From NCBI GenBank assembly GCA_946403075.1, contig CAMIYN010000001.1, positions 7,014-71,013 on the forward strand: a stretch of 64,000 nt of DNA, written 5' to 3'. Each line of letters opens with the position of its first letter. Within the stretch, counting starts at the first letter, position 1. This document shows, in pieces, positions 22,955-62,629 of this stretch. The notes beneath the pieces are model-generated. The model did not search any database, had not been told where the DNA came from, and saw nothing but the letters and a program-made list of their open reading frames with translations. Position numbers and translations under genes: made by a program. This DNA is from an uncultured Lachnospiraceae bacterium. GTDB taxonomy: Bacteria; Bacillota; Clostridia; Lachnospirales; Lachnospiraceae.

Positions 22955-23153
22955 GGGCTCGTGATGCTTCGCCCCTACGATTAACTCTACTTTCTTGCTT
23001 CGGGCTCGTTTAGGGCTCCCACTGGTTCGCCCCTACGGCCCCTACGGTTAACTCTACTATCTTGCTATAGGCTCGTGATGCTTCGCCCCTACATTTTTGG
23101 GTTCGTCCCTACGACTAACTCTACCATCTTGCTTCGGGCTCGCGGTCTCCTAC
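22955..23153. repeat. Array of about five GC-rich repeat units filling the xseA-xseB intergenic gap
   Basis: Cores at 22955-22978 (GGGCTCGTGATGCTTCGCCCCTAC), 23013-23036 (GGGCTCCCACTGGTTCGCCCCTAC + GGCCCCTAC) and 23070-23092. Diverged copies at 23098-23135 and 23136-23153. Linkers are GATTAACTCTAC(T/A)(T/A)TCTTGCT. Confidence 0.9.
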
Positions 23154-24372: not shown

Positions 24373-24904
24373 TACTTTTATATACAGTTCCCAATATGCC
24401 ATTTATAAATTTGTCTGCTCTATCATCCATCCCATACACCTTTGCAAGAAGCACAGCTTCATTTATTGGTATATTTATATCTTTTATATTTTCATCAAAA
24501 TACATTTCATAAACTGCTATCATAAGTATATACTTTTCACATCTTGGTATATGATTTATATTCCACCCTTTTAAATTTTTTGTAAGTATTTCTAATATTT
24601 CTTTTTCTCTTTCATAAAAATTTTTCAAAAATATTTTAATTCTATTGTATAGGGAATCCATACATACTTCTTTTAAATTCTTTTTATCTTTTTCTTTTAT
24701 AGAATAATTTAGATGCCCATCTTTTTTATAAACATCAAAATATTTGATTGACAAATCACCTGTATACTCATTTTTGTATTCTTTATCTTCATATGGTAAA
24801 TTTATAAAATATTTATCAAGCAATTCATCCAAATTATAATCATTATAAAAAGAGAGCATAACCAAAATTTTTAGTTTATGGTCTCTTATCTCTCTTTCTT
24901 GCAT
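24350..24904 (-). CDS. nusB: Transcription antitermination factor NusB (N-terminally extended)
   Basis: C-terminal ILMIAVYEMYF...INEAVLLAKVYG.D...KFINGILG is the NusB signature. Confidence 0.8.
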   Translation of the reverse strand: MQEREIRDHKLKILVMLSFYNDYNLDELLDKYFINLPYEDKEYKNEYTGDLSIKYFDVYKKDGHLNYSIKEKDKKNLKEVCMDSLYNRIKIFLKNFYEREKEILEILTKNLKGWNINHIPRCEKYILMIAVYEMYFDENIKDINIPINEAVLLAKVYGMDDRADKFINGILGTVYKSNENINSN

Positions 24905-27549: not shown

Positions 27550-27635
27550 TTTTTATATCTCCCTTTTATAAATATTTTTTATTTATTTTTTTACATAAAC
27601 ACCATACAAATTATGCTATTTACTATTTTTCAACA

Positions 27636-27886
27636 AGGTTCGCACCTATAATTAACACTACTATCTTACTATGGGCTCGCGATGCTTCGCCCCTACGATT
27701 AACTCTACTATCTTACTACGGGCTCGCGATGCTTCGCCCCTACAGACAACTCTGCTGTCTTACTACGGGCTCGTTTAGGGCTCCCACTGGTTCGCCCCTA
27801 CGGTCCCTACGATTAACTCTACTTTCTTGCTTATGAGCTCAAGGGACTTCCTATCGGTAGACAAGCCACCCTACGACAACATCCTG
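27636..27886. repeat. Array of GC-rich repeat units between rnj and the DUF1292 gene
   Basis: Perfect cores GGGCTCGCGATGCTTCGCCCCTAC at 27673-27696 and 27720-27743 (47-nt period). A type-b core GGGCTCCCACTGGTTCGCCCCTAC sits at 27778-27801. A partial copy is at 27636-27672 and a drifted copy GAGCTCAAGGGACTTCCTATCGGTAG.. at 27835-27886. Confidence 0.9.
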
Positions 27887-31604: not shown

Positions 31605-31716
31605 TTAAAACTCCATATGAATTATTACTGATATCTTTTTTTTCATTTTTCTATTAATGTTAATATCTAATGATATAATAAAACCTATAAAAAGTCTAAC
31701 AATTTATCTAAGGTTT

Positions 31717-31856
31717 ACTATCTTGAAAAGGGCTCGCGTGCTTCGCCCCTACAACTTTCACTGCTATATTGCAAACGGGCTCCCAGTGGTTCGCCCCTAC
31801 GGCCCCTACGGTTAACTCTACTATCTTGCTTCGGGCTCGCGATGCTTCGCCCCTAC
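31717..31856. repeat. Three GC-rich repeat units between the TolC-like gene and eamA
   Basis: GGGCTCGCG-TGCTTCGCCCCTAC (31730-31752), GGGCTCCCAGTGGTTCGCCCCTAC+GGCCCCTAC (31777-31809), GGGCTCGCGATGCTTCGCCCCTAC (31833-31856). Confidence 0.9.
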
Positions 31857-47088: not shown

Positions 47089-47176
47089 TTGCTACGGGCT
47101 CGCGGTGCTTCGCCCCTACGGCCCCTACGGTTATCGCTACTGTATTGCAAGCGGGCTCGTGGTACTTCGCCACTAC
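47089..47176. repeat. Two GC-rich repeat units at or just past the 3' end of the giant ORF
   Basis: GGGCTCGCGGTGCTTCGCCCCTAC (47096-47119) +GGCCCCTAC, linker GGTTATCGCTACTGTATTGCAAGC, then GGGCTCGTGGTACTTCGCCACTAC (47153-47176). The ORF stop TAG is the complement of 47173-47175, inside the second core. Confidence 0.9.
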
Positions 47177-50100
47177 AATTGCAATATGATTCTGTTTTTT
47201 ATGATGCCCAAGTCATTTACTTCATACTCTACATTACCATATCTTACTTTTTCATTTATTGCCATCTCCCCTGTCTCTTTAAAGAAATAACTCTCCCCAT
47301 TTATAACTTTGATACCTGTTTCAATGTTTCCATCCCTATCAAAACTATAAATATTTATTTTGTTTCCTATCTTGATTTTATATATGCCATTTCTTAATTT
47401 ATCATCATCTATTATATATTGGAGTTTTCCATTTGCATCTATAAAATTGCCACTGTCGTATACTTTACTGTCTGTTAAAATGTTATTTACACTGACTGCA
47501 TACAACATATTTAATATGTTTTTTGTGGTTTCAAGGTTTGATTTGAAATTGCTACTGTCTTGCAATTGGGCTCGTGGTACTTCGCCCCTACGGCTATCGC
47601 TACTGTCTTGCACACGGGCTCCCAAAGGTTCGCCCCTACGGTTATCGCTGCTGTCTTGCACACGGGCTCCCAGTGGTTCGCCCCTACTATTTATTGGGGC
47701 TTCGCCACTACTATTTAGTTCGGCTTCACCACTACTGCTACTGCTTCCCATCGCATTACTTCTTCTATTGCTCATGTTATTTTCTCTAGTTGTCTGAACA
47801 TTTGGACCTGTAGATGTATTCATGCCTGTACCAAATGGAGTTACATTAATATTTACATATCCTAAACCTCCATCAAGTGTATATGCATATATATATATAT
47901 ATGTATAGTTGTCAAAAGCAGGTTGTCTATCCGTATATGCAGTACCATCATATACTATTACTTGTCCTCCATTCCCTGGTTTTTCTGTCCTTCTGCAAGA
48001 GCATATATATATATACATCATACCCTTATTAATAAATGAATGTCCATCCATATCTAAATCATAGCCATTTAAACAAATTCCTGCATATCCATTTACTGGC
48101 ATATCATCTGTAAGTTTTATATCTTCGGTAAGGAAGAAAAATCCCATTTTAGTACTTTGTGGGTTGTCAGCATCATAAAATGCTGTCTTTAATGCACTTA
48201 CTCCACCTTGAGTTAATGGTTCATATGCAAACTTGCCGACATTCCCTGATGTATCTTGCCCCTTACCATTAGTATAATGCTTATGTGTGTTTTCAAGTTC
48301 AGCTATCAATTCTATACTTCCATCTTTTATGTCTAACAACTGACTTACTGGCAAATCTGTTATGCTATTTGTGTCATCTGGCATCACATAATATCTAGCA
48401 GTTATTTGCCCATTTGCAAGTGCTGTATCTATTGCAGTATCCCCTACATTATTTATTTTATTAACTTTCCACCTATTTATTCTATATCCTGGTTTTCTAA
48501 ATACAGTTTGTCCAATAACATATCTTTGATAATACTTTAATTCTTGCGATACATCACTTCCACTTATCAAAGAATCCGTATTTTTTGTGAGTTTCAATGT
48601 GTATTTATTCTCTTCCCATACTGACACAAGGTTAACTGTATAATTATTATTATTATCGATGTTAATCTTAAAATTATCCGTTGACACATCATATGCTGTA
48701 TTTAATTTAAATGTTTTCGTTCCATTTGTATATCCTACAAGTGTAAAGCCTTTCATCTTCGCACCATCATCTGTGAAGGTTATTTTATTCCCCATTCCAA
48801 TACTTTGTGATGGAACACTAGTTTGGCTTGGTGTCTTGCTATTGCCATCCGATGCTATGCTTCCATTAATTGTAAATGAGAACAAAACTTTAGTTTCTTC
48901 CAAAATTGCTGTAAATATAATTGTTGCTCCATCCTCATTTATGAATTTTTGTATTTTTGCACCTGGATTATACTCGTTCCCAACCATATTATATAAATAC
49001 GAAATATCATTCCCACTCTTATTAAGTACTTTTGTAATCTTCCAACTTTTGATATAACAATTTTCTTTTTCTACGGCATCAGTAGATAATTCTATGCTTT
49101 TATAATATCCTACATTTATGTCATCTGTTACAGATAGAGTAGCACCTTCATCATCAGTATTGTATCTAATGTTATATGTCTTCTCAACCCATATAGCCGT
49201 AAATGTAATTGTTATTCCTGAATCTTCTACTCCCATCTCTATTAGTGATACCTCTGCATTTGGCTCATATTGATTGTCATTTATACTTGATTTCCACCCT
49301 ACAATTCTAAATCCTTCAAGTGTAAATGTATTGTCAGGTTTTAATTTAATTCTCTCACCCTCTACATCATTATATGTTATTGAACTATCACTTGGAGAAT
49401 ATTTTTCACCATTTGACCCTATCCCTTCACCTACATTATATACGAGATTGTATTTTATGCCTGCCAATGATTTCCCTATTATCAACTTTTCTTCGCCATC
49501 TATTATTGTAATCATTGTTGACAAATTCTTTCTAACTCCTCCTGTCTCGGCTCTTATTCTTTCCGTTGGATCTATCTCGTTCAATCCAAGAACTGTCTCT
49601 TCATTAAAGTTATTATATACTACTCCTGTATATGGATCAGCTAATGCTATTTCCATATCTGACTCAGCGAGTTTGAATTTTGAATTACTCTTAGTCTTCA
49701 TAAATCCATCATTTCTCAAACTATATACTTGATGTATTTCTCCATCACTCAAATTACCTATAACCTTGATATTTGCATCACCTATCTCCAAAAGTCCTTT
49801 ACTGCCTACCAACAATCCTGCCTTCTCCCCTGTTCCTACAAGGAATGTATTTTCACTTATATTTATTTGCCCACCTGCTTCAATTGTCCCATACATCTCT
49901 ACTGCTCCTTGCAAGCCATTTAGTGCTACAAACTCATTTCCTACTACATTTATTTCTGAATCTACTTGACTTATCCACTTTGTCCCCTCAGCAGTCCTTA
50001 TCGCATATTTTAAATTCTTATTATCTCTTATACTTACTTTTGCCATTTTTACATTTGTGATTGATTGGTTTATTAGATTTATTACTCCCTCTCCTATCCT

Positions 50101-53100
50101 ATAATTATCTTCTATTGCTATATCGTTCTCAAATTGTAAGGCAGTTGAATTTTCTATTTTGAATATATTTTCTCTTACATCCACACCACTTACTGACATT
50201 GTATTTATTGTGAGTTTTGAATTGTCTAATCTAACAAGATTAGAAAACTCCCCACCCTCTACTATAAATTCTGTTATATATTCATCTACATTTACTTCAT
50301 TTGCATTTATATCACTCAAACTTATTAGCATTTGAGTAGTCTTATATCCTACAAACTTAACTTTTGCAAGTGCAAACTCTACACCATTACCCACAATGAC
50401 ACTATTACTCTTTGTTCCAGTTGTTCTCTGTGTAAATGTTGCATTTATTGCTTTAAAACCATTACCATTTATTATTCTATCTGCTACTACATCTATCTCT
50501 GTCTTTCCATATATTCTTCCTTTTACACCAGTAAATACATTGTTGCTACCTAAGTTTGTATATACTGCCTTTTCTTCTTGACAGTTTGTGATTACCACTT
50601 CATACTGCGAACTTCCTGTTGCTTGGAATCTTACTCCTGTTAAGTTAAACCCATTTAAGCATATTACAAGTTTTCCCCTAACTGTTATCACTGTGTCAGT
50701 ATTCTTTGTTATATCTGTCCCAAGATAATAATACCCTTGTCCTCTTGTTATTGCTTGTTCTACACTATCTGTGTCTCTCCACTCTGCATATACTTCACTA
50801 TTACTTCTATGTTGTGCTACTCCTGTATGTTCACAATCAAGCTCATTTATTTGTCCACAATCTTTATGCTTATGACTTCCATCATCATCTACATATGTCC
50901 ATACTGCTCTCAGTACTACTGTTCCACCATTTACTCCTAACCATTCTCTTACTTCATCTCTTGGCCTAAATGTATTTCCTATCTGAACATTATTACTACT
51001 TACATTATTCCCATTTTTATCTATTATTCTCACTACTTCCCAGCTTGCTGATTTGTAATGTTCTCTTATAAAATTAGATGCTCTTATTATAACTGAATCA
51101 TAATAGTATGGCTCTTGTGTTTCTATTTTACCCTGTGCTGCTTCATGTCCTGATTCATATTCTATCTTATATGTATACTCCTCCCACAAACCATATAGAT
51201 ATACTACATCTACTCCATTTATAGTTTTTCTCGCATAATCCAAATCTGGTATAGGTGAACCTGCCATAAATGCTACTACCTTCTCTTCACTGTATGAAAT
51301 ATTTTCTATCGGAGTCCATCCCACAAACCTAAATTGCTTTGCTTCAAATCTATTATTACTCAACACCTGTGTACTCATTATTGATCTTACATCTTGTGAA
51401 TACTCATCCCCCTCTACTTCTACTGTTCCTCCTCTATGTTTTCTTGCAATTCCACCTCTATACACAATTCTATAACCTTGCACTGTTACTATTTTTACAT
51501 CATCTTCTTCTAGTATTACTGACAATAAATTATAATTATGAAGTCCTGTGTCTGCATTAAATACTTTCTTGTATTCTTCCCTTGCATCCTTGCCTTGTGT
51601 TATATGTTGATTGGTAAACTCTTTATATATTGTTCCAAGTGTTACATTCGTAAATGCCACTGTCATACTTGATTTTGTTGTGTCAAATCTACACCCTTCA
51701 TATGTCTCCAAAAAACCATTGCTATTATTAGCCAATACTTCTACAACTTGCCCAGTACTACTTTCACTTCTATTATTTTTTACATTTAAATATCCATTAC
51801 CTAGTTTTATCACAGAAGCACTATTGCCATCCACTAACCTTAGTCCTATTCCCCTTGTAGTAATGTAATTATTACTTATATCTAGATTCCCAAGAATTAT
51901 CGCTTCTCCATTATAATCTAACCAAAATATAGCATTATTCTCTACATAGTTATTCGCTGTTATTAATCTATTTTTAGTTATTAATATATCTGTATCTAGT
52001 GCTACATGTACATTCCCTGCTCCTTGACTAGCAACTATTGATACTATCCTTCCCCTTCCTGTATTTCCATTTATATCCAGTTTCTTTCCCTGTGTCATTG
52101 TAAATTTTGTAACCTTTAATATATTGCCAGTGTTTGCTGTATTATCTTTTATATCCAAATTTCCATCAATAGCGATTGTTCTTATGTCAAACAAATCACT
52201 ACTTACTGTGTTATTATTTATATAATTATCCCCATTAAATGTAATGTCTGTATTATAAAATATATTTCCTTCACTAACGACTTTCTCTACTACACAATCT
52301 TTTAATACCATTCTACTATCATTTATAACAAACTCATCTATATCACAATCATGAACACTTATTGTATCCCATACATTAAATGAGTTTAGAGCAAATGTAG
52401 CAATACCGCTTGCCTCTACTTGTATATCTACATTATATAATACTGTCGCACTTATTTTATTAAATATATATGCTATATTAGTTTTACTTGTTGTTATTTT
52501 TATTTTTTCTTTTCCACCATATATATTACAATACACCCCACTAAACATTGATAAATTGTTATCTTCATGATTAATTTCTATCTCTCCATACATATCTTTA
52601 CAGTTAGATAGATTTACTATTCCCTCACCATTTATCTCTATATTTTGTAGCATATTCCCCGCCAAACATATATTTAATTCTACATTGTTTGGAACTGTTA
52701 ATTCTGTTATCTTATCTTCTTCCCCTGTAATTTGTGTCAAAAATACATATATTTTACTTCCACTATAAGCATCTGCCACTCTTCTCGTTAAATCTTCTAT
52801 TGCAGCAATTGCTGTATATCTATAATTTGAACTATGACTATCTCCCAAATGATTGCAGCTTCCAGTTACACCACATACTTTATGTGTATGATTTGCATCT
52901 ACTGGCATCCAATTTACTTCAAGTACTACTACACTACCATCTCTCTCTGTAAGTCCACTCTTTTTCATATTAGACCCTATGAGCACTATCTCAGGACTTA
53001 TTACCTCTTCTACTTCTACTCCGTTTTTATCTTTATATCTTACCTTCTTTACTTTCCAACCATTTGCTACTGTCCCCTCTCTTGCCTCATATGTGTTTCT

Positions 53101-56100
53101 CTTTAATCTCTCATCAGCAAAATAACTTCCTGTATCATCATCCATTTTCTCTGTTGTCGTATATCCTGCTGTATATTCTATGCTATACTCTACTTCCTTC
53201 CATATTGCAAATACTGGTACCACTCCCCGCTTTGTCGCAAGACTCGGTATCTCTACTAATGGCTGATAGAGAGTTCCTGTTGTATCAGTCTCCTGTAAAC
53301 TCCAACCCATAAATGCAAATCCATCTGCATAATAATAATTTTCGTTTAATTTTACATTCTCATTTAACTCTGCTAATGTATTGCTTACTACTATTCCTTC
53401 ATCTAATTTAACTTCATGCTCATTTCCATTGAAATCTATTGCCCTTCCTTTGTTATATGTTATTTCATATTCTAGATTTTTCCATACTGCAGTCAAAACT
53501 ATTCTTGCTCCATCTATATCAACAAGTCCTTTTTCACTATTGCCTGTAAATCTTTTACCAAGTATTTCCGATTCTACTAAATCTTTTCCATCAGCATCAT
53601 AAATTTTTGTTATCGTCCAACCCACAAAATCAACTGTTTCTTGTTCTGGATACATATTCCTCAAATCAATATTTTCATAATATTCATACTCTCCATCTCT
53701 AATTGTTACATCTATTATGTCTTCCCTTCCAGATTTAAACTCCAAGTTATATTTCTTGTTAGCCCATACTGCTGTAAGAATTATCTCGCTTAAATCATTA
53801 TTTATACCATCTTCTACTACTTCCCCAACATTATACCTATATCCATTTTCACTTACCCAACCTACTACCTTAAATCCTGCAGCTTTTATTATTTCTGCAT
53901 TTTCTTCTGTTAAATTTGTGCTTAAAACTACACTATCTCTATAATAGGCTATCTGATCAGGGTGTTCTCCCTTTGGTATTACATCTGAACCCCCAACACT
54001 TATCACTTCTGATCTATACTTTATAGTATATGTCTTTTGCTCCCATATTGCATATATAAGTATTTCTTCATCATCCTCCACTTCTTCAAATGCAGCCCGT
54101 CCTTCTCCTGGCTTTGTTATATCGCTTTTACCATTTTCATCTACACCTTCCTTATAAGGGCTCCAACCTACAAGTTCAAAACCATCTACCATATATGGAT
54201 TCTCCGTCTTATTTAAAAATGTTATCACTCCTCCTAACGACTCTACTTCTTTTATATAGTTATCAGGTCCACTTATATCTCTTATACTACCATCTCTCCC
54301 CTTTGCTACTCCTCTTTGATAATTTAACCTATACTTTCTATCTATCGCTTCCCCAGGTATTCCTATCCTTATATCCTTTGTCTCTGTTACATATACTACA
54401 AGCCCTTCATTTTCCCTAACTGAGTTAAATGAAATTCCTACCTGTTCTAATTTATTATTTTGCATTATGAGTCCTCTACCATTTGTCCTATTCGTGAATA
54501 GGACATCAACATCCATCTTGTTATCTGTTTCATTTCCTCTCATAAATGCTTTTACATTTTCACTATATATCCCTGCTCCTATCTTTTCCCCTATCCTACT
54601 CTTTACATAACCATACTCAGTAAAGTCAAGATATGCTGACTTCGTTAGATATATCCCTGATAATATTCCACTACTTAAATCTGTATAATTACTATATTGA
54701 TTATTTATTAACTCTAATCCTGCTCCCTTAAAATATATACTACTATCATCTGTTACTTCCACTATCCCTTGTGGACTCTTATTACTATTAATTGTATTCT
54801 GCTTTATCTCAAATTTATCCCCTACTATATAAATATTCTTTACATCATTCCCTACTGATATTATCTCTCCATTAAATGTTGAATTATTTATACTTAATCC
54901 TGACACATAAAAATCATCAGCACTCTTTATTAATTTACTTCCACTATCTACCTTTGCTTTTAAACTTGTCTTCTCTATCACTACTTTACTTGCTTTCTCT
55001 ATGAAATTTGCATTATTTTTTAATTCAAAATTTCCATCAACTCCATACATCCCTATTTCTCTATTTGTATTTATGAAATATCCATCTACTCCATTTACTG
55101 TTATTCCTTTTCTTCCCATTACATAGATTTTTAAATTATCTCCTATCTTTACATTCGTTAACTTACTTTCCTTTGGCTCTCCATTATACTCACAATTTAC
55201 CAAATATAAAATCCCAGAACCTGTAAAGGTTACATTTGTCAATGAATACCCTGATAGACATAGTGATACTTCATTATTTATTGCCACCTCTTGATTACTT
55301 ATATCTCTACTCAGTGAAAATGCACGGCTTTCATTATTAATATCACTTAATGCATTTATTGCTTTATATTTATATCTTGTTGTATGTTCCTCCCCTATCT
55401 CTTTACAACTTATAGAACAACCTTCCTTTACTCCACATAATAAATGTGTGTGCATATTCTCTATTACTACCATTTCCTCTATCTTGTATTCATTTACTAT
55501 TAAATTCTTATAAAGATTTGTATCTGCTTTAAACATTTCTCTATATTTTGTGACATCCTCCACTGTCTCTTCATTCCAGTTCGTTACTATCGTGCCACTT
55601 CCATCATCAGTAGAAAATGCTACTGTCATCTCTGTGTCCTTTGATAGTTTACCACCTGCACCTTCTACTAACTCTATGAAGCCTTCGCTATTTTCACTGT
55701 AGACTTGATACATAACACCATTTGAATTTCCTTTATTATCTTTTACTTTTATAGTGGTATTACCTGCTTTTATACTCTGAGAAGACCCAAATCTCATAGC
55801 AGCAAATATTCTATTAGAAAAATTGTTTTCTGTTATCTTATTATTACTTATATTTAATTTTACATCATTTGATATATCAAATGCACCATCAGATGAATAA
55901 TCTACAATCGCTATATCTATATTTCCAGCTACGATAGTATTTCCACTTATATCTATACTACTATTTTTTATTGCTACACCATTTCCAATAGAAAGCATCC
56001 CTGCTCTCTCCACTTTAGAGTTTGCTATTTTTATATTTGATTTTTCAATGTTTACATTTTCATTCAATGCGACTAATGGATAATTTCGATTCTCCCCACT

Positions 56101-59100
56101 TATATTTATATCCCCTATAAATTTTACATTAGAAAAATCGTATAATATATTCTCACCATTTCCGCGATATCCACTTATATTTGTTTCACTTATTGTCCAT
56201 CCACTATAATTTTCACCATAATGCACTGCTTGTCCCAAATTCACCGAGCTGCTTGATGACGATAATTCTGCTCCACATACTACTGCTTTCTTGCCAAATG
56301 CCAAACTATCACACTTTACTATTATCCTACTTTTAAGACTTATTAAATTCTTTTCATCAATCTTGCCACACATATATCTTATATATATTCTATCACTATT
56401 TACACCCCTATTAAAATCAGCAAGCTCCCCATTTGTAGCATTTACTACTGCCTCATATTTGTCAGTTTCTGTTATCTCATATAAACTTTTTGAAGTATTA
56501 CTTGCTATCACTTCAACTGCGGATACTGGATAACCAGAACCTTGTGTCGTTGTTTTATATAGATACACAAAATTTCCTTCACTGCATCCTTCATTTAGAT
56601 TCCAAGCATTCCCATCAAAATCTGTTATCGCTACATAATCTTTATTTGATAATCCTGTAAAGTCTTTTGGGTTTCTACCATCATCATTAAACCATCTCTC
56701 TCCTATGCCCCAGATTGCTTCACTCTTATTCGTTGTCATTTGATACCCGAGATACAATTCTGCTCCATCTGTGCCTTGGTTTAAATTTGTCTCAAGCATC
56801 ACATATCCCTTACTATCAAATGTGCTTTTTGCAGTTTGTTTTGACATTTTTAGGATTTTTACATCTTTTATGTATTCGTCTGCTTCCGTTCTTTTTACTT
56901 CTACTTCTACCAATAATTTTTGTATTATATTAACTGTCAAATCTTCACTAAAAATATTCACTGAATCATTTTTTAAAGTTGCATTACTCTTTGTAAAACA
57001 GTTAACTATATTAACTTTTCCACTTCCTTCAAATGAAACTCCTTCTATTTTTTTCCCTCTTAAACACAAATTTAATGTTCCATTTACTGTTATAGTTTTC
57101 TTTTCCACTATATTTTGCTTTAGATAAAAATTACCATTGTCAACTATATCAGATATTTTAGTAACCCCTTCAAACAAGACCTCTTCATTTAAATCTATTC
57201 CATTATTTAAAAATTCTGTTTTTATCTCGCTTGAATGATTACATCTATTTTTTATACATCCACACAAACTATGTGTGTGTGTAGCATTATTCCACACTGG
57301 ATATAATATTATCTTTGACCCTATAGCGGCTCCTGGTATTCCTTTAGTAAGTTTTTCTCTCAACTCAAAATCTATATTATCAGAACCTTCTGTAAGGGTC
57401 CAACCTATCTGTTTTACTTCTTCTTCCTCACTCTGAATAGTCCACATCTTATCAAATAATGTTATAGATTTATCGATAGTAGCATATTGAATAATGCTTG
57501 TTTCTTGTCCATTACCCAAAACACTCTTCCACTCCATACTATCTGGTGCAGATAATCTATATTCTATAATATAATCTTTATTGCCTGCACTATAATCCCC
57601 TGGGAACCACATAGAACTTGGGCCGTAGCCACGACTACTAGGATTATACACCTGAAATTTAAAAGGCATAAGTGGATTATGATTATTAAAATTTGCTCTC
57701 GCCTCCCTTATAGGAAAATCATTATCTGGATAAAAAAATCCTTCTTTCCCATACAAGTAAGCCCAACTATATTGCTTCTTTAACTCATCATCTCCATAAA
57801 TTCTTTGCACATATCCTGGACGAGGAGAGTTGGGGTCGTCGACCCAGTACAAACCTGTTCCATCATATTTCTCAGGAGTGTCTTTGTATATTTCATACAA
57901 GTAGTTTGGTATCAGGTATTCATCGTTATTGTTACTTCTATGAGTTTTTAAAACAATACACCCCTCTCTCCCAAATCGATTATCTTTTGTGACATTACCA
58001 AATATTTGTCTCGTCTCATTTTTATCCTCATATACATATGAAAAAGTAATAGATGAATTCCCTTCATTTGCAATAGGACCACATCTTTTTACATCATCAT
58101 TTTCTAATTTAAATAAATGATCCTTCATAATAAAATAATGATTTCTCCAAGTATCATTTCTATAATTTATTAAAGAGAATGTTAGTCCAGCAAAATAATC
58201 CCTATACGAAGAAATACCTGCAGCACTCATATATCTATCAGGAAACTTTGGAGGCTCAAGAATTATCCAAGGGCTTATTAAACCTCTTTCCATTTCAGCT
58301 TTAGTTCTTCCTATTTCAAGTTGTCCATTTGTGATGTTATACCAATCTCTTAACATAATCACATCCAAAGATGTAGGTCTTATTACATGTGGATCATCTG
58401 TAGTGTGTATAAATGTTTTAAAATGAGTATCATAATTAAATATCCCTTCTACAGATGCAAGGGTATTATCCTTTATAACCAAAGAGCCACCTATTCGAGT
58501 GTCCGTTCCATTTAATCTCATACCAACTGGATATGATGTTGGAGAATACTCTCTACTCTCGTCAATATAGCATGGATTAATATTATAATTACATGTATTA
58601 TTTTGAATTCTGACACTTGCAACAGCCTGAATTGTAGTATAGAGTCTTGCACGATAAGGGCTGGCCTTTATCCATGGTCCCCATTCAACTTGATTTACTA
58701 TACTCCCATATCTTTCAATTGTATAATTTCTGCTTTTGTATATCAAACGAGATCCAATTGTACTATTATTCTCTATGTTTATTGCAGGTGCCCTGAGAGT
58801 GCAATCATAAACTTTTGCCGAAGTAAAATCTTGTACTATATCAATAGAATCCTTTAAATATATGTATTCAGCAAGCACACCATCCCCTACTATTGTACTA
58901 CTTGTCCTTGGTGTGAATACGATGTCAGCATAGTCAAGTGCTGACCCTTCACCCTTTTCTTCAAGTCTAAACTCCATTAAAGAATTCGCATCTTTAGGAC
59001 CTGGCACATATAAATCTCTCAATTCTCTAATTTCATCACCACTAATATACCCATATCCAATTTCCCACTGGTCTTCAGCTTTATTCAACCATTCTCTTAA

Positions 59101-62100
59101 TTCTCTTGATGGATCATAATGTATATAAGGATTATAATCAAAATACTTCCTATACTTTGCATTAATCACTTCTCTCACAAGATAATATTTGTTTTTTTGA
59201 TGACAATCGGAAAATGAAACTCCACATATTTCAACTTTAGGATGATAATTACCATAATCATAATAAGTGCCCTCAGCAATTTTCTCTGGATACAGATTTT
59301 GATTCCCATAATGCCAATATAAGCCTGAAGAACAATTTATAAATTTCACATCACTATGAAGAAAAGTATTCTCAACTCTATATATTTCCAAAATAGGTTG
59401 ATATGCTATAGTTTTTCCTTTATTTGTCATATTAAAATTCATAAATTTAACATCTTTTAAATAAACTTTGTTTAGACCATCAAATAATAGTGGAATATCG
59501 TTAGCAACACTAATCCTACCATATGATTTATAATTCATTTGAAAATCATTATAATCAAATACACAATTATATATATAACATGCTGGATGATTATTTAAGG
59601 TTCTAAAACTTCCTGGTCTTATGTGAACTGGTGCTCTAAATTTTATTCCTCTTAAACTCCATATAAAATTCGGTAGTTTATGTCCATACATATATCTACC
59701 ACACCACCCACAGTATCCTATTTTTGCTCGTTCACCACACTGGTATTTCCAGGGCTTATCCGGTTCCAAGATTGTTTCTCTCCATATATATTCCCAATCA
59801 TCTGCATCAACATATACATCACACCATTTTGTTAAACGATCACTAGTTGGCATAAAATCTATACAACCACGATTAAATTCTTGAGTTCCACCAGATATTA
59901 TACTTAACGAACCAAACCAAGCATTGGGCGAATAGAAAAAACAACTCTTTTCTGGGTTACTATATATTGTTGCTACATTGTTTTTACAGTTATATATATG
60001 TAAAGTAAACCATGGGTTGCCAACAACATAAAAATTTTTAATATTTTTTCCATTTAAGCAAATCGTCATTTCTAAAGAAATACCCCTTTTCAACGGAATT
60101 GGGATTTCACCGTTTACAAAAAAAGTATTCCAATCAAACATATCTTGATCTATATAAAATCGATTGTAGAAAGAAGTTGAGGTGCTATAGGGATGACCAC
60201 CACGAATAAAATGCTCATAATAATAAGCTTCATCATAATACCAATCGATATCCGATATATAATATGGAGTTTTAGGAAATGTAGATATTGGAGCATAATA
60301 ATACGAGTACTTTTTATGATAAGGGTCACCAAATGTCTCGTAAAACTTGTTATCTGCATCATTTTTGTATTTATGAGAACCACTTGAGGGAGTATGTTCA
60401 ACCTCTCCATATTTAATTCCTCTTTTTATATTTGGCAACTCAAAACCATCTTTTTCATTTTCTTCAATCTTCTCCCCATTATCTTCGACAGCACCAAGTT
60501 TTTTACTTCTCGCCACTGTCTCTACTTCTTGTTCACTACTACCCAATATCATTTTTCTAATAATTGTTTTATAATTTTCTATTACTTTTCCTAATACTTC
60601 TTCATCTTTTATATAATTGTTTATAGTAAATATTTTTAATTCATTTTCATCATATTCTTCAGCACCTTCACTTTGCAAAGGCAAATCATCTTGTAGAGAT
60701 GTCGCTTCCGTGTTAATCTCATCATTTTCGATGTTTTCATTTTCTACATACTCTATTTCTGATTTATCCATAGGGACAAAGCTATGTGATTCTTCCATCA
60801 CTTTTTCACCACTTATGTCATCATGTAGAGATGCTCCATCTATACCCACATTTTCTGCATCCGTTTTCGCACCATGCTCTCCATCATTTCCATACTTATT
60901 TTGTCTGTTTGGTACATGTATCGCACTGGACTCATCATTATTTATCTTCATATCATCACTATCGATGTTTTCATTTTCTAAATATTCTGCATCAGCCTCA
61001 AAAATGCTATATTCTTCATCAACTTCGTTTTTTGCATGTTCTACTTCGGGATCCCAAGGATTTGTCTCTTCTGTGTCTTCTTTTTCGTTTTCTTCTTTTA
61101 TTATCCCCTCAAGTTTTAATGCCTCATAACTTCTATCATATAATTCTCTCAAAACACTATTAGCAATTTCTGCTGGCATATATATTGAACTCAATTCTTC
61201 TTTACCAGTATAATTTTCATACTTATCTACACCACTACTTATTGCAGCCTCTACTTCTTTTATCAATCTATCCTTATCTAATTGAAAACTTATCTCAGCA
61301 TTGTTATCTTCATTTTTTATTGATTCTATAACTTCTTTTTCGTTATATATATTCTTCCACACTGCTGGGACAACTACTACTTTTTTAAGCCCATAATCAT
61401 CACTTATTACAACAGACACAATAGGACTGAGAAGTAGTTCTTCGTAAAGCAATGCTTCTTTTATTTCTTGTTCTTCTTTGTAAGGAACAGAAATCTCTTG
61501 CCTTTCATCTGTTCCTTGCATCAAAACTTTTACTATCTTCCAGTTATTTTCAGTTATTCCACTCTTTTGGTTTTTTATAAATAAATCTATATAGTTAGTT
61601 ATGTTTTCATCTATTTTTGTTTCATCATCATTATTTTCTATACTTGCTTCACTTGCTGTAGATGGTGAAGCAGCTGTGCCATTGTCTATAGTATTTATAT
61701 CGGGCACGGGGTACTTCACCTCTACATCATTTGGATTCGCCCCTACAACGGCATCTTCTGCATTTTCTATATTCTCGTTTTCTTCATTTGTCTCATCGGG
61801 CTCGCGATGCTTCGCCCCTACATTATTTTCGTTCGCCCCTACGACTTCGTTGTCATTGTTCTCATTGTCATCAGCGGGCTCCCAATGGTTCGCCCCTACA
61901 TTATTTTCGTTTGCCCCTACAACGGCATCTTCTGCATTTTCTGTATTCTCGTTTTCTTCATATTCCCCATCGGGCTCGCGATGCTTCTCCCCTACGGTGT
62001 TTGGGTTTGTCTCTACAGTATCATCGCTTTTGTTTTCCTTATTCTCATTTTCTAGATATTCTCCATCGGACACGGGATACTTCGCCCCTGCATTACTTGG

Positions 62101-62484
62101 GTTCTCCCCTGCAACGGCATCTTCTGCATTTTCTGTATTCTCGTTTTCTTCATATTCCCCATCGGGCTCGCGATGCTTCGCCCCTACGGCTTCTACTTCT
62201 ATATCTTCATCAATTCCATTTAACTCATCACTATTTTCACCTTCAGCAAAAAACTCACCACCTTCATTTGGTGCTGTGGTATTTGTATCTTCCACGGTTT
62301 CGCTACTACTATCACTTTTTGGTTTTGTGCTAGCAAGTGTTGACACAGCATTACTGCTTATCAACATACTTAATAGTAGCACAAAAGAGATAACTCTCTT
62401 TAAGTTACCCACAGTAAATATTTTTGCGGTAAAACTTTTTACTCCTTTTTTAATTTTTAAAAAGTTAGTCATATGTGTTTTCAT
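47173..62484 (-). CDS. Giant (5103 aa) modular secreted/cell-surface protein. Signal anchor, acidic repeat region, ~1000-aa Tyr/Trp/Cys-rich region, five HxH..CG...CL(N/S/R/A)G + beta-helix-like modules alternating with Listeria-Bacteroides (Flg_new-type) repeats, then C-terminal cell-wall-binding-like repeats
   Basis: A single uninterrupted 15.3-kb frame in a stop-rich AT genome, with strong SD AAAGGAGGT 7 nt before the ATG. N-terminal hydrophobic segment VISFVLLLSMLISSNAVSTLA. Repeated ..GF.(V/L)VGW.. ~70-aa units (e.g. GFELVGWSPYKEG, GFKVVGWVSENG, FRFVGWTPIE, GFRIVGWKSS, GFTLVGYTNG). The C-terminus ..NGESYFFKETGEMA.. resembles choline/cell-wall-binding repeats. Confidence 0.85.
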   Translation of the reverse strand: MKTHMTNFLKIKKGVKSFTAKIFTVGNLKRVISFVLLLSMLISSNAVSTLASTKPKSDSSSETVEDTNTTAPNEGGEFFAEGENSDELNGIDEDIEVEAVGAKHREPDGEYEENENTENAEDAVAGENPSNAGAKYPVSDGEYLENENKENKSDDTVETNPNTVGEKHREPDGEYEENENTENAEDAVVGANENNVGANHWEPADDNENNDNEVVGANENNVGAKHREPDETNEENENIENAEDAVVGANPNDVEVKYPVPDINTIDNGTAASPSTASEASIENNDDETKIDENITNYIDLFIKNQKSGITENNWKIVKVLMQGTDERQEISVPYKEEQEIKEALLYEELLLSPIVSVVISDDYGLKKVVVVPAVWKNIYNEKEVIESIKNEDNNAEISFQLDKDRLIKEVEAAISSGVDKYENYTGKEELSSIYMPAEIANSVLRELYDRSYEALKLEGIIKEENEKEDTEETNPWDPEVEHAKNEVDEEYSIFEADAEYLENENIDSDDMKINNDESSAIHVPNRQNKYGNDGEHGAKTDAENVGIDGASLHDDISGEKVMEESHSFVPMDKSEIEYVENENIENDEINTEATSLQDDLPLQSEGAEEYDENELKIFTINNYIKDEEVLGKVIENYKTIIRKMILGSSEQEVETVARSKKLGAVEDNGEKIEENEKDGFELPNIKRGIKYGEVEHTPSSGSHKYKNDADNKFYETFGDPYHKKYSYYYAPISTFPKTPYYISDIDWYYDEAYYYEHFIRGGHPYSTSTSFYNRFYIDQDMFDWNTFFVNGEIPIPLKRGISLEMTICLNGKNIKNFYVVGNPWFTLHIYNCKNNVATIYSNPEKSCFFYSPNAWFGSLSIISGGTQEFNRGCIDFMPTSDRLTKWCDVYVDADDWEYIWRETILEPDKPWKYQCGERAKIGYCGWCGRYMYGHKLPNFIWSLRGIKFRAPVHIRPGSFRTLNNHPACYIYNCVFDYNDFQMNYKSYGRISVANDIPLLFDGLNKVYLKDVKFMNFNMTNKGKTIAYQPILEIYRVENTFLHSDVKFINCSSGLYWHYGNQNLYPEKIAEGTYYDYGNYHPKVEICGVSFSDCHQKNKYYLVREVINAKYRKYFDYNPYIHYDPSRELREWLNKAEDQWEIGYGYISGDEIRELRDLYVPGPKDANSLMEFRLEEKGEGSALDYADIVFTPRTSSTIVGDGVLAEYIYLKDSIDIVQDFTSAKVYDCTLRAPAINIENNSTIGSRLIYKSRNYTIERYGSIVNQVEWGPWIKASPYRARLYTTIQAVASVRIQNNTCNYNINPCYIDESREYSPTSYPVGMRLNGTDTRIGGSLVIKDNTLASVEGIFNYDTHFKTFIHTTDDPHVIRPTSLDVIMLRDWYNITNGQLEIGRTKAEMERGLISPWIILEPPKFPDRYMSAAGISSYRDYFAGLTFSLINYRNDTWRNHYFIMKDHLFKLENDDVKRCGPIANEGNSSITFSYVYEDKNETRQIFGNVTKDNRFGREGCIVLKTHRSNNNDEYLIPNYLYEIYKDTPEKYDGTGLYWVDDPNSPRPGYVQRIYGDDELKKQYSWAYLYGKEGFFYPDNDFPIREARANFNNHNPLMPFKFQVYNPSSRGYGPSSMWFPGDYSAGNKDYIIEYRLSAPDSMEWKSVLGNGQETSIIQYATIDKSITLFDKMWTIQSEEEEVKQIGWTLTEGSDNIDFELREKLTKGIPGAAIGSKIILYPVWNNATHTHSLCGCIKNRCNHSSEIKTEFLNNGIDLNEEVLFEGVTKISDIVDNGNFYLKQNIVEKKTITVNGTLNLCLRGKKIEGVSFEGSGKVNIVNCFTKSNATLKNDSVNIFSEDLTVNIIQKLLVEVEVKRTEADEYIKDVKILKMSKQTAKSTFDSKGYVMLETNLNQGTDGAELYLGYQMTTNKSEAIWGIGERWFNDDGRNPKDFTGLSNKDYVAITDFDGNAWNLNEGCSEGNFVYLYKTTTQGSGYPVSAVEVIASNTSKSLYEITETDKYEAVVNATNGELADFNRGVNSDRIYIRYMCGKIDEKNLISLKSRIIVKCDSLAFGKKAVVCGAELSSSSSSVNLGQAVHYGENYSGWTISETNISGYRGNGENILYDFSNVKFIGDINISGENRNYPLVALNENVNIEKSNIKIANSKVERAGMLSIGNGVAIKNSSIDISGNTIVAGNIDIAIVDYSSDGAFDISNDVKLNISNNKITENNFSNRIFAAMRFGSSQSIKAGNTTIKVKDNKGNSNGVMYQVYSENSEGFIELVEGAGGKLSKDTEMTVAFSTDDGSGTIVTNWNEETVEDVTKYREMFKADTNLYKNLIVNEYKIEEMVVIENMHTHLLCGVKEGCSISCKEIGEEHTTRYKYKAINALSDINNESRAFSLSRDISNQEVAINNEVSLCLSGYSLTNVTFTGSGILYLVNCEYNGEPKESKLTNVKIGDNLKIYVMGRKGITVNGVDGYFINTNREIGMYGVDGNFELKNNANFIEKASKVVIEKTSLKAKVDSGSKLIKSADDFYVSGLSINNSTFNGEIISVGNDVKNIYIVGDKFEIKQNTINSNKSPQGIVEVTDDSSIYFKGAGLELINNQYSNYTDLSSGILSGIYLTKSAYLDFTEYGYVKSRIGEKIGAGIYSENVKAFMRGNETDNKMDVDVLFTNRTNGRGLIMQNNKLEQVGISFNSVRENEGLVVYVTETKDIRIGIPGEAIDRKYRLNYQRGVAKGRDGSIRDISGPDNYIKEVESLGGVITFLNKTENPYMVDGFELVGWSPYKEGVDENGKSDITKPGEGRAAFEEVEDDEEILIYAIWEQKTYTIKYRSEVISVGGSDVIPKGEHPDQIAYYRDSVVLSTNLTEENAEIIKAAGFKVVGWVSENGYRYNVGEVVEDGINNDLSEIILTAVWANKKYNLEFKSGREDIIDVTIRDGEYEYYENIDLRNMYPEQETVDFVGWTITKIYDADGKDLVESEILGKRFTGNSEKGLVDIDGARIVLTAVWKNLEYEITYNKGRAIDFNGNEHEVKLDEGIVVSNTLAELNENVKLNENYYYADGFAFMGWSLQETDTTGTLYQPLVEIPSLATKRGVVPVFAIWKEVEYSIEYTAGYTTTEKMDDDTGSYFADERLKRNTYEAREGTVANGWKVKKVRYKDKNGVEVEEVISPEIVLIGSNMKKSGLTERDGSVVVLEVNWMPVDANHTHKVCGVTGSCNHLGDSHSSNYRYTAIAAIEDLTRRVADAYSGSKIYVFLTQITGEEDKITELTVPNNVELNICLAGNMLQNIEINGEGIVNLSNCKDMYGEIEINHEDNNLSMFSGVYCNIYGGKEKIKITTSKTNIAYIFNKISATVLYNVDIQVEASGIATFALNSFNVWDTISVHDCDIDEFVINDSRMVLKDCVVEKVVSEGNIFYNTDITFNGDNYINNNTVSSDLFDIRTIAIDGNLDIKDNTANTGNILKVTKFTMTQGKKLDINGNTGRGRIVSIVASQGAGNVHVALDTDILITKNRLITANNYVENNAIFWLDYNGEAIILGNLDISNNYITTRGIGLRLVDGNSASVIKLGNGYLNVKNNRSESSTGQVVEVLANNSNGFLETYEGCRFDTTKSSMTVAFTNVTLGTIYKEFTNQHITQGKDAREEYKKVFNADTGLHNYNLLSVILEEDDVKIVTVQGYRIVYRGGIARKHRGGTVEVEGDEYSQDVRSIMSTQVLSNNRFEAKQFRFVGWTPIENISYSEEKVVAFMAGSPIPDLDYARKTINGVDVVYLYGLWEEYTYKIEYESGHEAAQGKIETQEPYYYDSVIIRASNFIREHYKSASWEVVRIIDKNGNNVSSNNVQIGNTFRPRDEVREWLGVNGGTVVLRAVWTYVDDDGSHKHKDCGQINELDCEHTGVAQHRSNSEVYAEWRDTDSVEQAITRGQGYYYLGTDITKNTDTVITVRGKLVICLNGFNLTGVRFQATGSSQYEVVITNCQEEKAVYTNLGSNNVFTGVKGRIYGKTEIDVVADRIINGNGFKAINATFTQRTTGTKSNSVIVGNGVEFALAKVKFVGYKTTQMLISLSDINANEVNVDEYITEFIVEGGEFSNLVRLDNSKLTINTMSVSGVDVRENIFKIENSTALQFENDIAIEDNYRIGEGVINLINQSITNVKMAKVSIRDNKNLKYAIRTAEGTKWISQVDSEINVVGNEFVALNGLQGAVEMYGTIEAGGQINISENTFLVGTGEKAGLLVGSKGLLEIGDANIKVIGNLSDGEIHQVYSLRNDGFMKTKSNSKFKLAESDMEIALADPYTGVVYNNFNEETVLGLNEIDPTERIRAETGGVRKNLSTMITIIDGEEKLIIGKSLAGIKYNLVYNVGEGIGSNGEKYSPSDSSITYNDVEGERIKLKPDNTFTLEGFRIVGWKSSINDNQYEPNAEVSLIEMGVEDSGITITFTAIWVEKTYNIRYNTDDEGATLSVTDDINVGYYKSIELSTDAVEKENCYIKSWKITKVLNKSGNDISYLYNMVGNEYNPGAKIQKFINEDGATIIFTAILEETKVLFSFTINGSIASDGNSKTPSQTSVPSQSIGMGNKITFTDDGAKMKGFTLVGYTNGTKTFKLNTAYDVSTDNFKINIDNNNNYTVNLVSVWEENKYTLKLTKNTDSLISGSDVSQELKYYQRYVIGQTVFRKPGYRINRWKVNKINNVGDTAIDTALANGQITARYYVMPDDTNSITDLPVSQLLDIKDGSIELIAELENTHKHYTNGKGQDTSGNVGKFAYEPLTQGGVSALKTAFYDADNPQSTKMGFFFLTEDIKLTDDMPVNGYAGICLNGYDLDMDGHSFINKGMMYIYICSCRRTEKPGNGGQVIVYDGTAYTDRQPAFDNYTYIYIYAYTLDGGLGYVNINVTPFGTGMNTSTGPNVQTTRENNMSNRRSNAMGSSSSSGEAELNSSGEAPINSRGEPLGARVQDSSDNRRGEPLGARVQDSSDSRRGEVPRAQLQDSSNFKSNLETTKNILNMLYAVSVNNILTDSKVYDSGNFIDANGKLQYIIDDDKLRNGIYKIKIGNKINIYSFDRDGNIETGIKVINGESYFFKETGEMAINEKVRYGNVEYEVNDLGIIKNRIILQL
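47176..47460 (-). other. C-terminal cell-wall/glucan-binding-like repeat region of the giant protein
   Basis: SGNFIDANGKLQYII..., NIYSFDRDGNIETG, INGESYFFKETGEMAINE, VEYEVNDLGII are degenerate aromatic-Gly ~20-aa repeats of the CW_binding_1 type. Confidence 0.45.
47551..47740. repeat. Three full GC-rich repeat units (exact 48-nt period) plus half copies, translated inside the giant ORF
   Basis: Cores at 47568-47591, 47616-47639 and 47664-47687. Half copies GGGGCTTCGCCACTAC (47697-47712) and GGCTTCACCACTAC. Translated as ..SRGEPLGARVQDSSDNRRGEPLGARVQDSSDSRRGEVPRAQLQDSS.. Confidence 0.9.
47887..48015. repeat. Two AT dinucleotide tracts, (AT)8 at 47887-47902 and (AT)6A at 48003-48015, inside the giant ORF
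   Basis: Read directly from the sequence. They encode ..TYIYIYAYT.. and ..MYIYICSC.. Confidence 0.9.
56370..56870 (-). other. Three-fold beta-prism-like (MABP-like) insert within module 1 of the giant protein
   Basis: Three similar segments: GYVMLETNLNQGTDGAELYLGYQ, DYVAITDFDGNAWNLNEGCSEGNFVYLYK, YEAVVNATNGELADFNRGVNSDRIYIRYM. The pattern (GY.v....(D/N)(L/F)N.G....YL.Y) recalls MABP/beta-prism repeats. From memory only. Confidence 0.3.
61702..62187. repeat. Six GC-rich repeat cores plus half copies embedded in ~190-bp tandem repeats, translated in the N-terminal acidic region of the giant ORF
   Basis: Perfect or near-perfect cores at 61798-61821, 61876-61899 (type b), 61972-61995 and 62164-62187. 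Diverged cores at 61702-61725 and 62068-62091. Translated as VGAKHREPDGEYEENENTENAEDA, VGANHWEP, VGEKHREP. Confidence 0.9.
62329..62484 (-). other. N-terminal signal peptide / membrane anchor of the giant protein
   Basis: A basic stretch (KIKKGVKSFTAKIFTVGNLKR) followed by hydrophobic VISFVLLLSMLISSNAVSTLAS. Confidence 0.6.
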
Positions 62485-62549
62485 ATCAACTACCTCCTTT
62501 GTTAAATGGATTGATGTTTATATTTTTATAATTTAATGTTGGATAATTT

Positions 62550-62629
62550 AACTATCTTGCTTCGGACTCGTGGTACTTCGCCCCTACTATTTATTTGGGG
62601 TTCGCCCCTACGGCCCCTACGATTGCAAC
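62550..62629. repeat. GC-rich repeat unit(s) in the leader 70-145 nt upstream of the giant ORF start
   Basis: Linker ACTATCTTGCTTC, core GGACTCGTGGTACTTCGCCCCTAC (62564-62587), then TATTTATTTGGGGTTCGCCCCTACGGCCCCTACG. Confidence 0.9.

Follow-up and report, generated by a model that had tools for sequence, protein, structure and literature searches.

A GTAG-tagged hairpin repeat of uncultured rumen Clostridia, probably of REP type, is read in several frames by the genes that contain it

In a 64-kb stretch of contig CAMIYN010000001.1 from an uncultured Lachnospiraceae bacterium (the window), a 24-nt element that begins with GTAG recurs between genes and inside them, and within one giant gene it is read in two different frames. 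This element is probably a hairpin repeat of the repetitive extragenic palindromic (REP) type that multiplies as nucleic acid within a clade of uncultured, AT-rich Clostridia of the rumen and is passively translated. An earlier note on this DNA had argued that the repeat is maintained as DNA or RNA and merely tolerated in translation, and seven independent lines of evidence now support that argument. The element forms stop-containing intergenic head-to-tail arrays with a period of 47 nt; genes use it in two sense frames and, at one locus, in two antisense frames; it is inserted in unrelated conserved enzymes, with Pfam domains split around it; one such insert is present in one of two paralogues and absent from the other; its codons are among the rarest of the host; the extension that contains it in an aminotransferase is unconstrained in amino acids yet open; and both frames are in regular use, with the two repeat regions of the giant gene lying inside its open reading frame (ORF).

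The window was analyzed together with 41 related loci, numbered L001 and upwards (23 GTDB stretches and 18 metagenome stretches, exact-pattern scan), about 330 kb in all and none of them from the window's own genome. The 23 GTDB stretches come from six genomes, all uncultured rumen metagenome-assembled genomes (MAGs) labelled Lachnospiraceae, Clostridia or Clostridiales. The frame survey reported below was made on this DNA and not database-wide.

The 24-mer GTAGGGGCGAAGCATCGCGAGCCC matches the window 12 times at up to 3 mismatches, always on the minus strand and never in 100 shuffles; the matches include 62164-62187, 61972-61995, 61876-61899, 61798-61821, 47568-47591 and 11905-11928. All 21 occurrences of the 11-mer GTAGGGGCGAA are on the minus strand, with none on the plus strand. 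In total the window holds 28 cores at 8 separate sites, all on one strand and half of them intergenic. Each core begins with an unpaired GTAG tag, followed by GGGC-GA(A), an inner stem of 2-3 bp with a loop of 2-3 nt, and GA-GCCC, which together make a GC-rich, imperfect hairpin of about 20 nt with an outer stem of 4 bp. GTAG precedes the stem in every window copy, and GTAT and GTAC variants occur in the related loci. In head-to-tail arrays the unit consists of the 24-nt core and a conserved spacer of 23-24 nt, and the intergenic units contain stop codons.

The subtypes of the core differ by paired changes in the inner 7-mer (GCnnnGC, GTnnnAC and CCnnnGG), and the related genomes add TGCttGCA, a 23-nt form (GGGCGAGCnnnGCGAGCCC), an outer-stem variant GCGC...GCGC, and the perfect hairpins GGGCGGATnnnATCCGCCC and GGGACGACAnnnTGTCGTCCC. 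For each subtype the minimum-free-energy fold given by ViennaRNA is ....((((...((...))..)))), with GTAG unpaired. In two alignments 95-97% of cells are paired and three pairs show changes on both sides, namely GC to CG and CG to UA exchanges in the inner stem and GGGC/GCCC to GCGC/GCGC exchanges in the outer stem. The covariation score was matched by 0 of 500 shuffles, and structures slid along the alignments fall to 8-57% paired. On the sense strand, G-U wobble pairs (GGGT..GCCC) are frequent. Two variants deserve separate mention. A composite type-b unit, GTAGGG(G/A)CC-GTAGGGGCGAACCAGTGGGAGCCC-TAAAC-GAGCCC, is found at two places in the window (27790-27860 and 23020-23060) and folds, at -20.1 kcal/mol (z -2.1), into a hairpin enclosed by an outer GGGGC/GCCC stem; it may record the insertion of one element into another. 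The subfamily GTATGGGCGAGCTATGCGAGCCCCTAC of L026 and L027 (metagenome contigs JAEEGL01...) carries a GTAT tag at its 5' end and the complement of GTAG at its 3' end, so its orientation is ambiguous, and it may be a different REP class of a neighbouring lineage.

Other identities for the element were rejected. A CRISPR-like array does not agree with spacers that are conserved between units and loci, nor with arrays that are scattered and in some cases lie inside ORFs, and no cas domains were found among the scanned window genes. The hallmark of a k-turn is a 3-nt bulge followed by G.A and A.G pairs; reading the GAA/GA internal loop as a K-turn or K-loop is broken by the type-b and 23-nt variants, and covariation instead backs the 12:18 and 13:17 pairs of a 2-bp inner stem. 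A known structured RNA family was set aside on the absence of any Rfam match to the window or the element, either at the gathering score or at E<=1.

Five of the element's six reading frames are open; in the sixth (xxG TAG), the GTAG tag itself contributes an in-frame TAG stop. The two open sense frames are called F0, in which the core is read GTA GGG GCG, and F1, in which it is read xGT AGG GGC. Both occur in the giant gene, which also has arrays immediately outside its two ends:

47173..62484, minus strand: giant ORF of 5103 codons, with a signal-peptide-like N-terminus and a AAAGGAGG ribosome-binding site (RBS); the repeat is in F0 near the N-terminus and in F1 near the C-terminus
61699..62187, minus strand: N-terminal acidic array, in F0; 96-nt unit comprising core (24 nt), acidic spacer (51 nt) and half-core (21 nt)
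62164-62187, 61972-61995, 61876-61899 (type b) and 61798-61821, minus strand: full cores of the N-terminal array
62091, 61920, 61842, 61746 and 61725, minus strand: starts of the half or degenerate cores of the N-terminal array
47544..47735, minus strand: C-terminal array, in F1; two 24-nt half units, then three 48-nt units (24-nt core and 24-nt spacer), giving SSGEAELNSSGEAPINSRGEPLGARVQDSSDNRRGEPLGARVQDSSDSRRGEVPRAQLQDSS
47090..47176, minus strand: array directly after the giant gene, with its second core at 47096-47119
62564..62620, minus strand: 5'-region array of the giant gene, ~75 nt ahead of its start codon, composed in order of GTAGGGGCC, a half unit and a type-c core

At residues ~100-260 of the giant protein, the F0 copies give VGAKHREP (twice), VGEKHREP and VGANHWEP, these four at residues ~100-235, together with the degenerate AGAKYPVS/VEVKYPVP. 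At residues ~4935-4985 the translation is SRGEPLGARVQDSSDNRRGEPLGARVQDSSDSRRGEVPRAQ, and the F1 cores there read SRGEPLGARVQDSSDN, RRGEPLGARVQDSSDS and RRGEVPRAQLQDSS, with RGEPLGA and RRGEVPRAQ among them. All coordinates and peptide readings of the earlier note were reproduced by 24-mer search and ORF translation, including its central observation that one motif is read in one frame at the N-terminus of the giant protein and in the other at its C-terminus and in an aminotransferase. Its description of these copies as the same 24-mer holds in part. Within the window, copies in different frames differ by 1-3 bases: type a in F0 differs from the core at 11905 by 1 mismatch, type b at 61876 differs from 47664 by 1 mismatch, and 47568 is a third subtype. 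Exact identity across frames does exist for the type-c 24-mer GTAGGGGCGAAGTACCACGAGCCC, for which the window uses F1 (47591) and L043 uses F0, giving VGAKYHEP. The note had also placed the N-terminal copies in tandem duplications of 174-192 bp. The strong cores are indeed 192 and 174 nt apart, but Tandem Repeats Finder (TRF) reports a 96-nt unit (3.3 copies, 72% matches), and the 192-nt period therefore represents two diverged 96-nt units. For the C-terminal array the TRF periods are 48 and 24.

The stop codon of the giant gene is itself part of the element, being the TAG (47175-47173) of the GTAG tag of the first downstream core, which starts at 47176; ORFs in L014 (core at 7608) and L022 (core at 4526) likewise end on the TAG of a tag. 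No intrinsic terminator was found after the giant gene. Between the F1 array and the stop codon lie 139 open codons, and the last 125 aa show a weak, sub-threshold match to choline-binding repeats. The giant protein is also present in a public protein library (as P0125) and matches no Pfam family at E<=1e-3. When its 168-aa N-terminal repeat region was compared with 1.84 billion representative proteins, only 2 matches were returned, itself and P0126. The latter, encoded by L043, is a fragment of an ortholog from another rumen sample (~77% DNA identity) in which the N-terminal region is open and the units are in frame and arranged differently; the array at 62564..62620 is missing from the equivalent position in L043. 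Apart from the repeats, the giant protein contains about five large internal modules marked by (T/S)H(T/K)H..CG...C.H near residues 1735, 2345, 3198, 3870 and 4733. Plus-strand ORFs of up to 311 aa run antisense through repeat arrays (61601-62536, 61731-62333, 47360-47797 and 27504-27836); these long shadow ORFs arise because the complement of the repeat has no stop codons, and they could be mis-annotated as genes.

The second coding site in the window is the N-terminal extension of the aminotransferase:

10556-12094, minus strand: aminotransferase ORF, with NRRGEALRAQ and NRSGEALRAQ read in F1
11740..12094, minus strand: 118-codon N-terminal extension composed of repeat units of 21 and 69 nt, with two F1 cores (11905-11928 and 11836-11859)
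11754-11764, minus strand: remnant of an F0 core after a 33-nt in-frame deletion

Homologs at <=73% identity are all ~395-400 aa long and are without the extension. In five close variants (504-523 aa) it is open over 118-130 codons despite heavy divergence, with in-frame indels. Four of these five have a full F0 core (VGAKHCEP or VGAKLCEP) where the window has the 33-nt deletion, and F1 and F0 copies therefore coexist in the aminotransferase of those strains. Differences in the extension fall on the three codon positions in the numbers 27/28/31, with a ratio of non-synonymous to synonymous changes of 45:13, whereas the constrained enzyme body has 24/19/75 and 38:59. The extension thus evolves without amino-acid constraint, and yet neutral sequence at this divergence would be free of stop codons with a probability of only ~0.01-0.02. 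In the AlphaFold model most of the enzyme has a pLDDT (predicted local distance difference test) above 90, and residues 1-109 have one below 50. Where orthologs have the ancestral first Met (MINKKM...; L044 and L045 were compared), the window has AAT, directly after the repeat remnant; the original start region of aminotransferase translation was apparently replaced when the repeat inserted.

In the related loci, in-frame copies occur in genes that have little in common. They were found in D-Ala-D-Ala ligase, or Ddl (L021 and L033, with the Pfam domain split into two stretches), an M20 peptidase (L007), HsdS (L006), a HerA/VirB4-like ATPase (L001 and L003), a DUF285/LRR surface protein (L002) and a membrane protein (L017, in F1, with CRGEQKY three times); both sense frames are used across the ligase, the peptidase, HsdS, the ATPase and the membrane protein. 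The two ATPase genes are paralogues from one MAG, and a 135-nt repeat insert (45 codons) is found in L003 only; the pair also differs by a 21-codon expansion at a second site. Antisense copies occur in L013 and L034. The radical-SAM (HemN-like) gene of L034 (510-2234, minus strand) contains one sense copy in F1 (RGECLQSP) and about eight antisense copies in two frames (..FAPT and ..RPY), which makes three readings in one gene.

The survey of cores in open stretches of at least 200 codons counted 50 in F0 and 17 in F1, so that intragenic copies are not confined to a single frame. Neighbouring cores in long ORFs are spaced by a multiple of 3 in 31 of 33 cases, whereas outside long ORFs the spacing modulo 3 is 0, 1 or 2 in 15, 19 and 13 cases. 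The TRF periods agree with this division: the intergenic array has a period of 47, and the coding arrays have periods of 21, 24, 48, 69 and 96. The codons that the core supplies are rare in the genes of the window, both in F0 (CGC is 0.6% of Arg, GCG 6% of Ala and CCC 4.7% of Pro codons) and in F1 (CGT and CGA 2.6% each, GCC 3.3%, TCG 4.9%). The earlier note had called for disorder prediction, and in a charge-hydropathy plot the repeat-encoded segments fall on the disordered side and the flanking protein bodies do not. Disorder, rare codons and scarce homologs do not fit selection for a peptide. A protein search with a synthetic F1 peptide gave no match and missed even P0001, being insensitive to such low-complexity sequence.

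The window is AT-rich (24-34% GC) with a strong and constant GC skew, and essentially all of its genes are on the minus strand. The scan of these genes returned ordinary chromosomal functions (exonuclease VII, RNase J, RuvX, RecN-like, FeoB, transporters and a Dam-type methylase), and no tRNA genes were found in the window. Three intergenic arrays lie among them:

22955..23153, minus strand: head-to-tail array 3' of the exonuclease VII large-subunit gene (23167-24402)
27630..27875, minus strand: head-to-tail array with a period of 47 nt, between a DUF1292 gene and the RNase J gene
31712..31856, minus strand: array of three cores between the ORF 31869-33284 and an EamA transporter gene

The array at 22955..23153 lies immediately ahead of a short ORF with a strong RBS and an ATG at ~22911; by the usual xseA-xseB-ispA gene order, this ORF would be xseB. 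That at 27630..27875 includes the nested type-b composite GTAGGGACC-GTAGGGGCGAACCAGTGGGAGCCC-TAAAC-GAGCCC. The period of 47 was measured for this array, and spacings vary in the others. The neighbouring RNase J (25522-27549, minus strand, 675 aa) has a metallo-beta-lactamase domain that begins only at residue 145; its Lys/Asn-rich N-terminal extension of ~120 residues was checked and is not repeat-derived.

Across the window and the related loci, 59 cores lie between unidirectional genes, 4 between convergent genes and 0 between divergent genes, and many are placed between a stop codon and the RBS of the next gene. Between unidirectional genes 52 are in sense orientation and 7 antisense. In L023 and L026, two loci whose local gene direction runs counter to the overall GC skew, the core follows the gene. 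Several matches sit at the ends of MAG or metagenome contigs (L006 3-26, L012 1-24, L023 3-26, L031 3-26 and L021 73-96), which suggests that short-read assembly of these genomes is interrupted by the repeat.

The closest parallels are found among the GTAG REPs. The canonical REP has a 5' GT[AG]G at the foot of a hairpin (Di Nocera 2013 PMC3733652; Quentin 2018 PMC6006769), the E. coli type being an imperfect palindrome with a bulge and a conserved motif in front (Corneloup 2021 PMC8266576). In the GTAG-3 family, which is of enterobacterial type, non-complementary di- or trinucleotides separate the stem from a GC..GC loop (PMC3733652). The present element shares with GTAG-3 REPs the unpaired 5' GTAG at the foot of a GC-rich hairpin of 20-25 nt and the sequence of outer stem, non-complementary di- or trinucleotides and short GC..GC inner stem-loop. 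It resembles GTAG REPs more widely in having subfamilies with compensatory stem changes and frequent G-T pairing, and in lying between unidirectional or convergent genes with some in-frame intragenic copies, as are occasionally seen in O. terrae, Thauera and R. conorii (PMC3733652). It differs in its host, which belongs to an AT-rich lineage of Clostridia, in an outer stem of only 4 bp, and in the fact that about half of the window copies are intragenic. Firmicutes receive no mention in the REP surveys consulted (including PMC3733652), and the present motif was not found in the literature searched. With REPIN/RAYT systems (PMC3116915, PMC2817692, PMC8266576) the element shares a GTAG tag and an imperfect hairpin, the type of single-stranded DNA substrate used by TnpA-REP, and its single-strand orientation bias would fit a lagging-strand-template mechanism; REPINs, however, are inverted doublets, and none was seen in the present arrays.

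Two other systems resemble the element in behaviour. According to later accounts of the original report (Ogata 2000 via PMC10969869, PMC3733652), the Rickettsia palindromic elements (RPE) are selfish palindromic repeats found in frame in many unrelated protein genes. As those accounts describe them, RPE are tolerated as extra peptide segments and also occur in non-coding DNA, which holds for the present element too; RPE-1 is described there as ~100-150 bp long with one conserved peptide, whereas the present unit is 24 nt (47-48 with its spacer). The present element, moreover, uses four or more of its five open frames and is arranged in tandem arrays, and it has no sequence relationship to RPE and a host of a different phylum, so that the behaviour is alike and the family is not. 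The BOX elements of Streptococcus pneumoniae form modular head-to-tail arrays that are intergenic, co-transcribed with their neighbours and able to form stable hairpins; their modules are 45-59 nt long and have no GTAG tag, and systematic in-frame coding copies of BOX are not known. The likeness would lie in modular head-to-tail arrays in a Firmicute, and the difference in the GTAG tag of the present element and its apparent lack of sequence similarity to BOX. This kind of selfish repeat is thus already known; the present family and its host group appear to be undescribed.

The most probable account of these observations is that the element spreads by dispersal to new sites combined with local head-to-tail tandem duplication. 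Copies occur on many contigs of the 6 MAGs and at 8 sites in the 64-kb window, these counts being taken from partial genomes. With five frames open, copies in genes would leave the protein untruncated when the length of the insert is a multiple of three, and the coding copies that survive would be those in linkers, loops and termini, where they form disordered, sequence-unconstrained peptide. One gene would then carry the same DNA both as VGAKHREP and as RRGE..A(Q) because copies are tolerated in any open frame, and the closed frame (xxG TAG) would serve as the stop codon of the giant gene. The dispersal step might be carried out by a Y1/HUH enzyme acting on single-stranded DNA, of the RAYT (TnpA-REP) or IS200 type, as has been proposed for GTAG REPs; we infer this link by analogy. 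The intergenic copies would presumably act as transcribed hairpins in operon mRNAs.

Several points weigh against a REP-type element that is passively translated. No RAYT/Y1 transposase homolog was found in the ~330 kb of the window and related loci by phmmer with E. coli RayT (best E 0.42), and the Y1_Tnp domain is absent from Pfam scans of ~31 window ORFs. Head-to-tail arrays are rare among described REP families, and no inverted REPIN/BIME pairs were seen, 28 of the 28 window cores being on one strand. Folded one at a time, 24-mers show no significant gain in stability over shuffles (z -0.5 to -1.5), and the search patterns themselves account for part of the conservation of the outer stem. 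Translation of the repeat copies is predicted from ORFs; no homologs of the C-terminal 404 aa of the giant protein were found at E<=1e-5; and Met119 of the aminotransferase could in principle be an alternative start, which would place the copies of that gene in a 5' leader. The strand bias fits selection at the RNA level as well as lagging-strand targeting, and the two are inseparable in the present sample.

The last point bears on the alternative that the element is a functional RNA module, a protective or processing hairpin that punctuates operon mRNAs and leaves coding copies as by-products. This possibility, which is partly compatible with a REP-type element, seems to us a tentative one: the prevailing sense orientation between unidirectional genes, the avoidance of divergent pairs, the positions between stop codons and the next RBS, the wobble pairs of the sense strand and the agreement with gene direction in L023 and L026 all argue for it, but there is no Rfam match even at E<=1, antisense copies exist in L013 and L034, and an RNA function leaves both the arrival at new sites and the placement in enzyme loops unexplained. 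A distinct, Firmicute-specific REP system would go further, with sense-strand-restricted hairpins spreading head-to-tail without a classical RAYT and generating protein segments, N-terminal extensions and stop codons throughout the clade; such a system would be mobilised perhaps via an IS200-type TnpA or an RNA- or replication-linked route, and would reach even essential enzymes such as D-Ala-D-Ala ligase. We regard it as unlikely. It is distinctly unlikely that one of the two readings is untranslated, either because the aminotransferase starts at Met119 or because the repeat-bearing ends of the giant ORF are annotation artefacts. The shorter aminotransferase homologs, the loss of the ancestral first Met and the lack of a strong RBS before ATG 12094 favour a later start, as does Met119, which is invariant in seven aligned sequences but not in a 42-sequence alignment. 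Against it stand the improbable openness of the extension in five variants, its periods of 21 and 69 nt, and the location of ATG 12094 1 nt past an upstream stop codon, where translational coupling is possible. For the giant gene the idea meets arrays that are internal to the ORF, with the AAAGGAGG RBS upstream and the open codons downstream, and so the refuting condition named in the earlier note, a region that is not translated, fails there and retains some force only for the aminotransferase.

Two further explanations fare worse. Slippage or unequal crossing-over of a GC-rich, microsatellite-like unit, acting locally and without dispersal, would agree with the variation in unit length between strains, the 7-aa indels and the units of 21, 30 and 48 nt. 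It accounts for expansion and not for the seeding of new sites, and copies are scattered over many unlinked sites and various genes of six or more MAGs and of further metagenome contigs, with a de novo insert in only one of the L001 and L003 paralogues; as the whole explanation it is very unlikely. That the peptides are the selected unit, for instance as a surface-protein motif, with DNA likeness left over from recent coding duplication, is largely refuted and retains hardly any credibility. The giant protein is of a secreted or surface type in which peptide repeats are common, and its ortholog P0126 retains F0 units, but the same DNA is read in two sense and two antisense frames, is abundant in stop-containing non-coding arrays, lies in unrelated cytoplasmic enzymes and is written in host-rare codons without amino-acid constraint, and the 168-aa region is almost without relatives among the proteins searched.

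If confirmed, the REP-type element would provide a clean natural example of selfish DNA that is maintained at the nucleic-acid level and read through by ribosomes in several frames; a single gene here uses all three sense frames of one tag, as Val-Gly, as Arg-Gly and as stop. The strand bias offers a handle on whether REP orientation tracks replication or transcription. Confirmation would also account for the breaks in short-read assemblies at repeat sites, and would caution annotators that low-complexity inserts and extended N-termini of proteins in these MAGs are repeat-derived. GTAG-type REPs would then extend to AT-rich Clostridia, and such repeats would make up a sizeable share of the protein linkers and extensions in a gut or rumen lineage.

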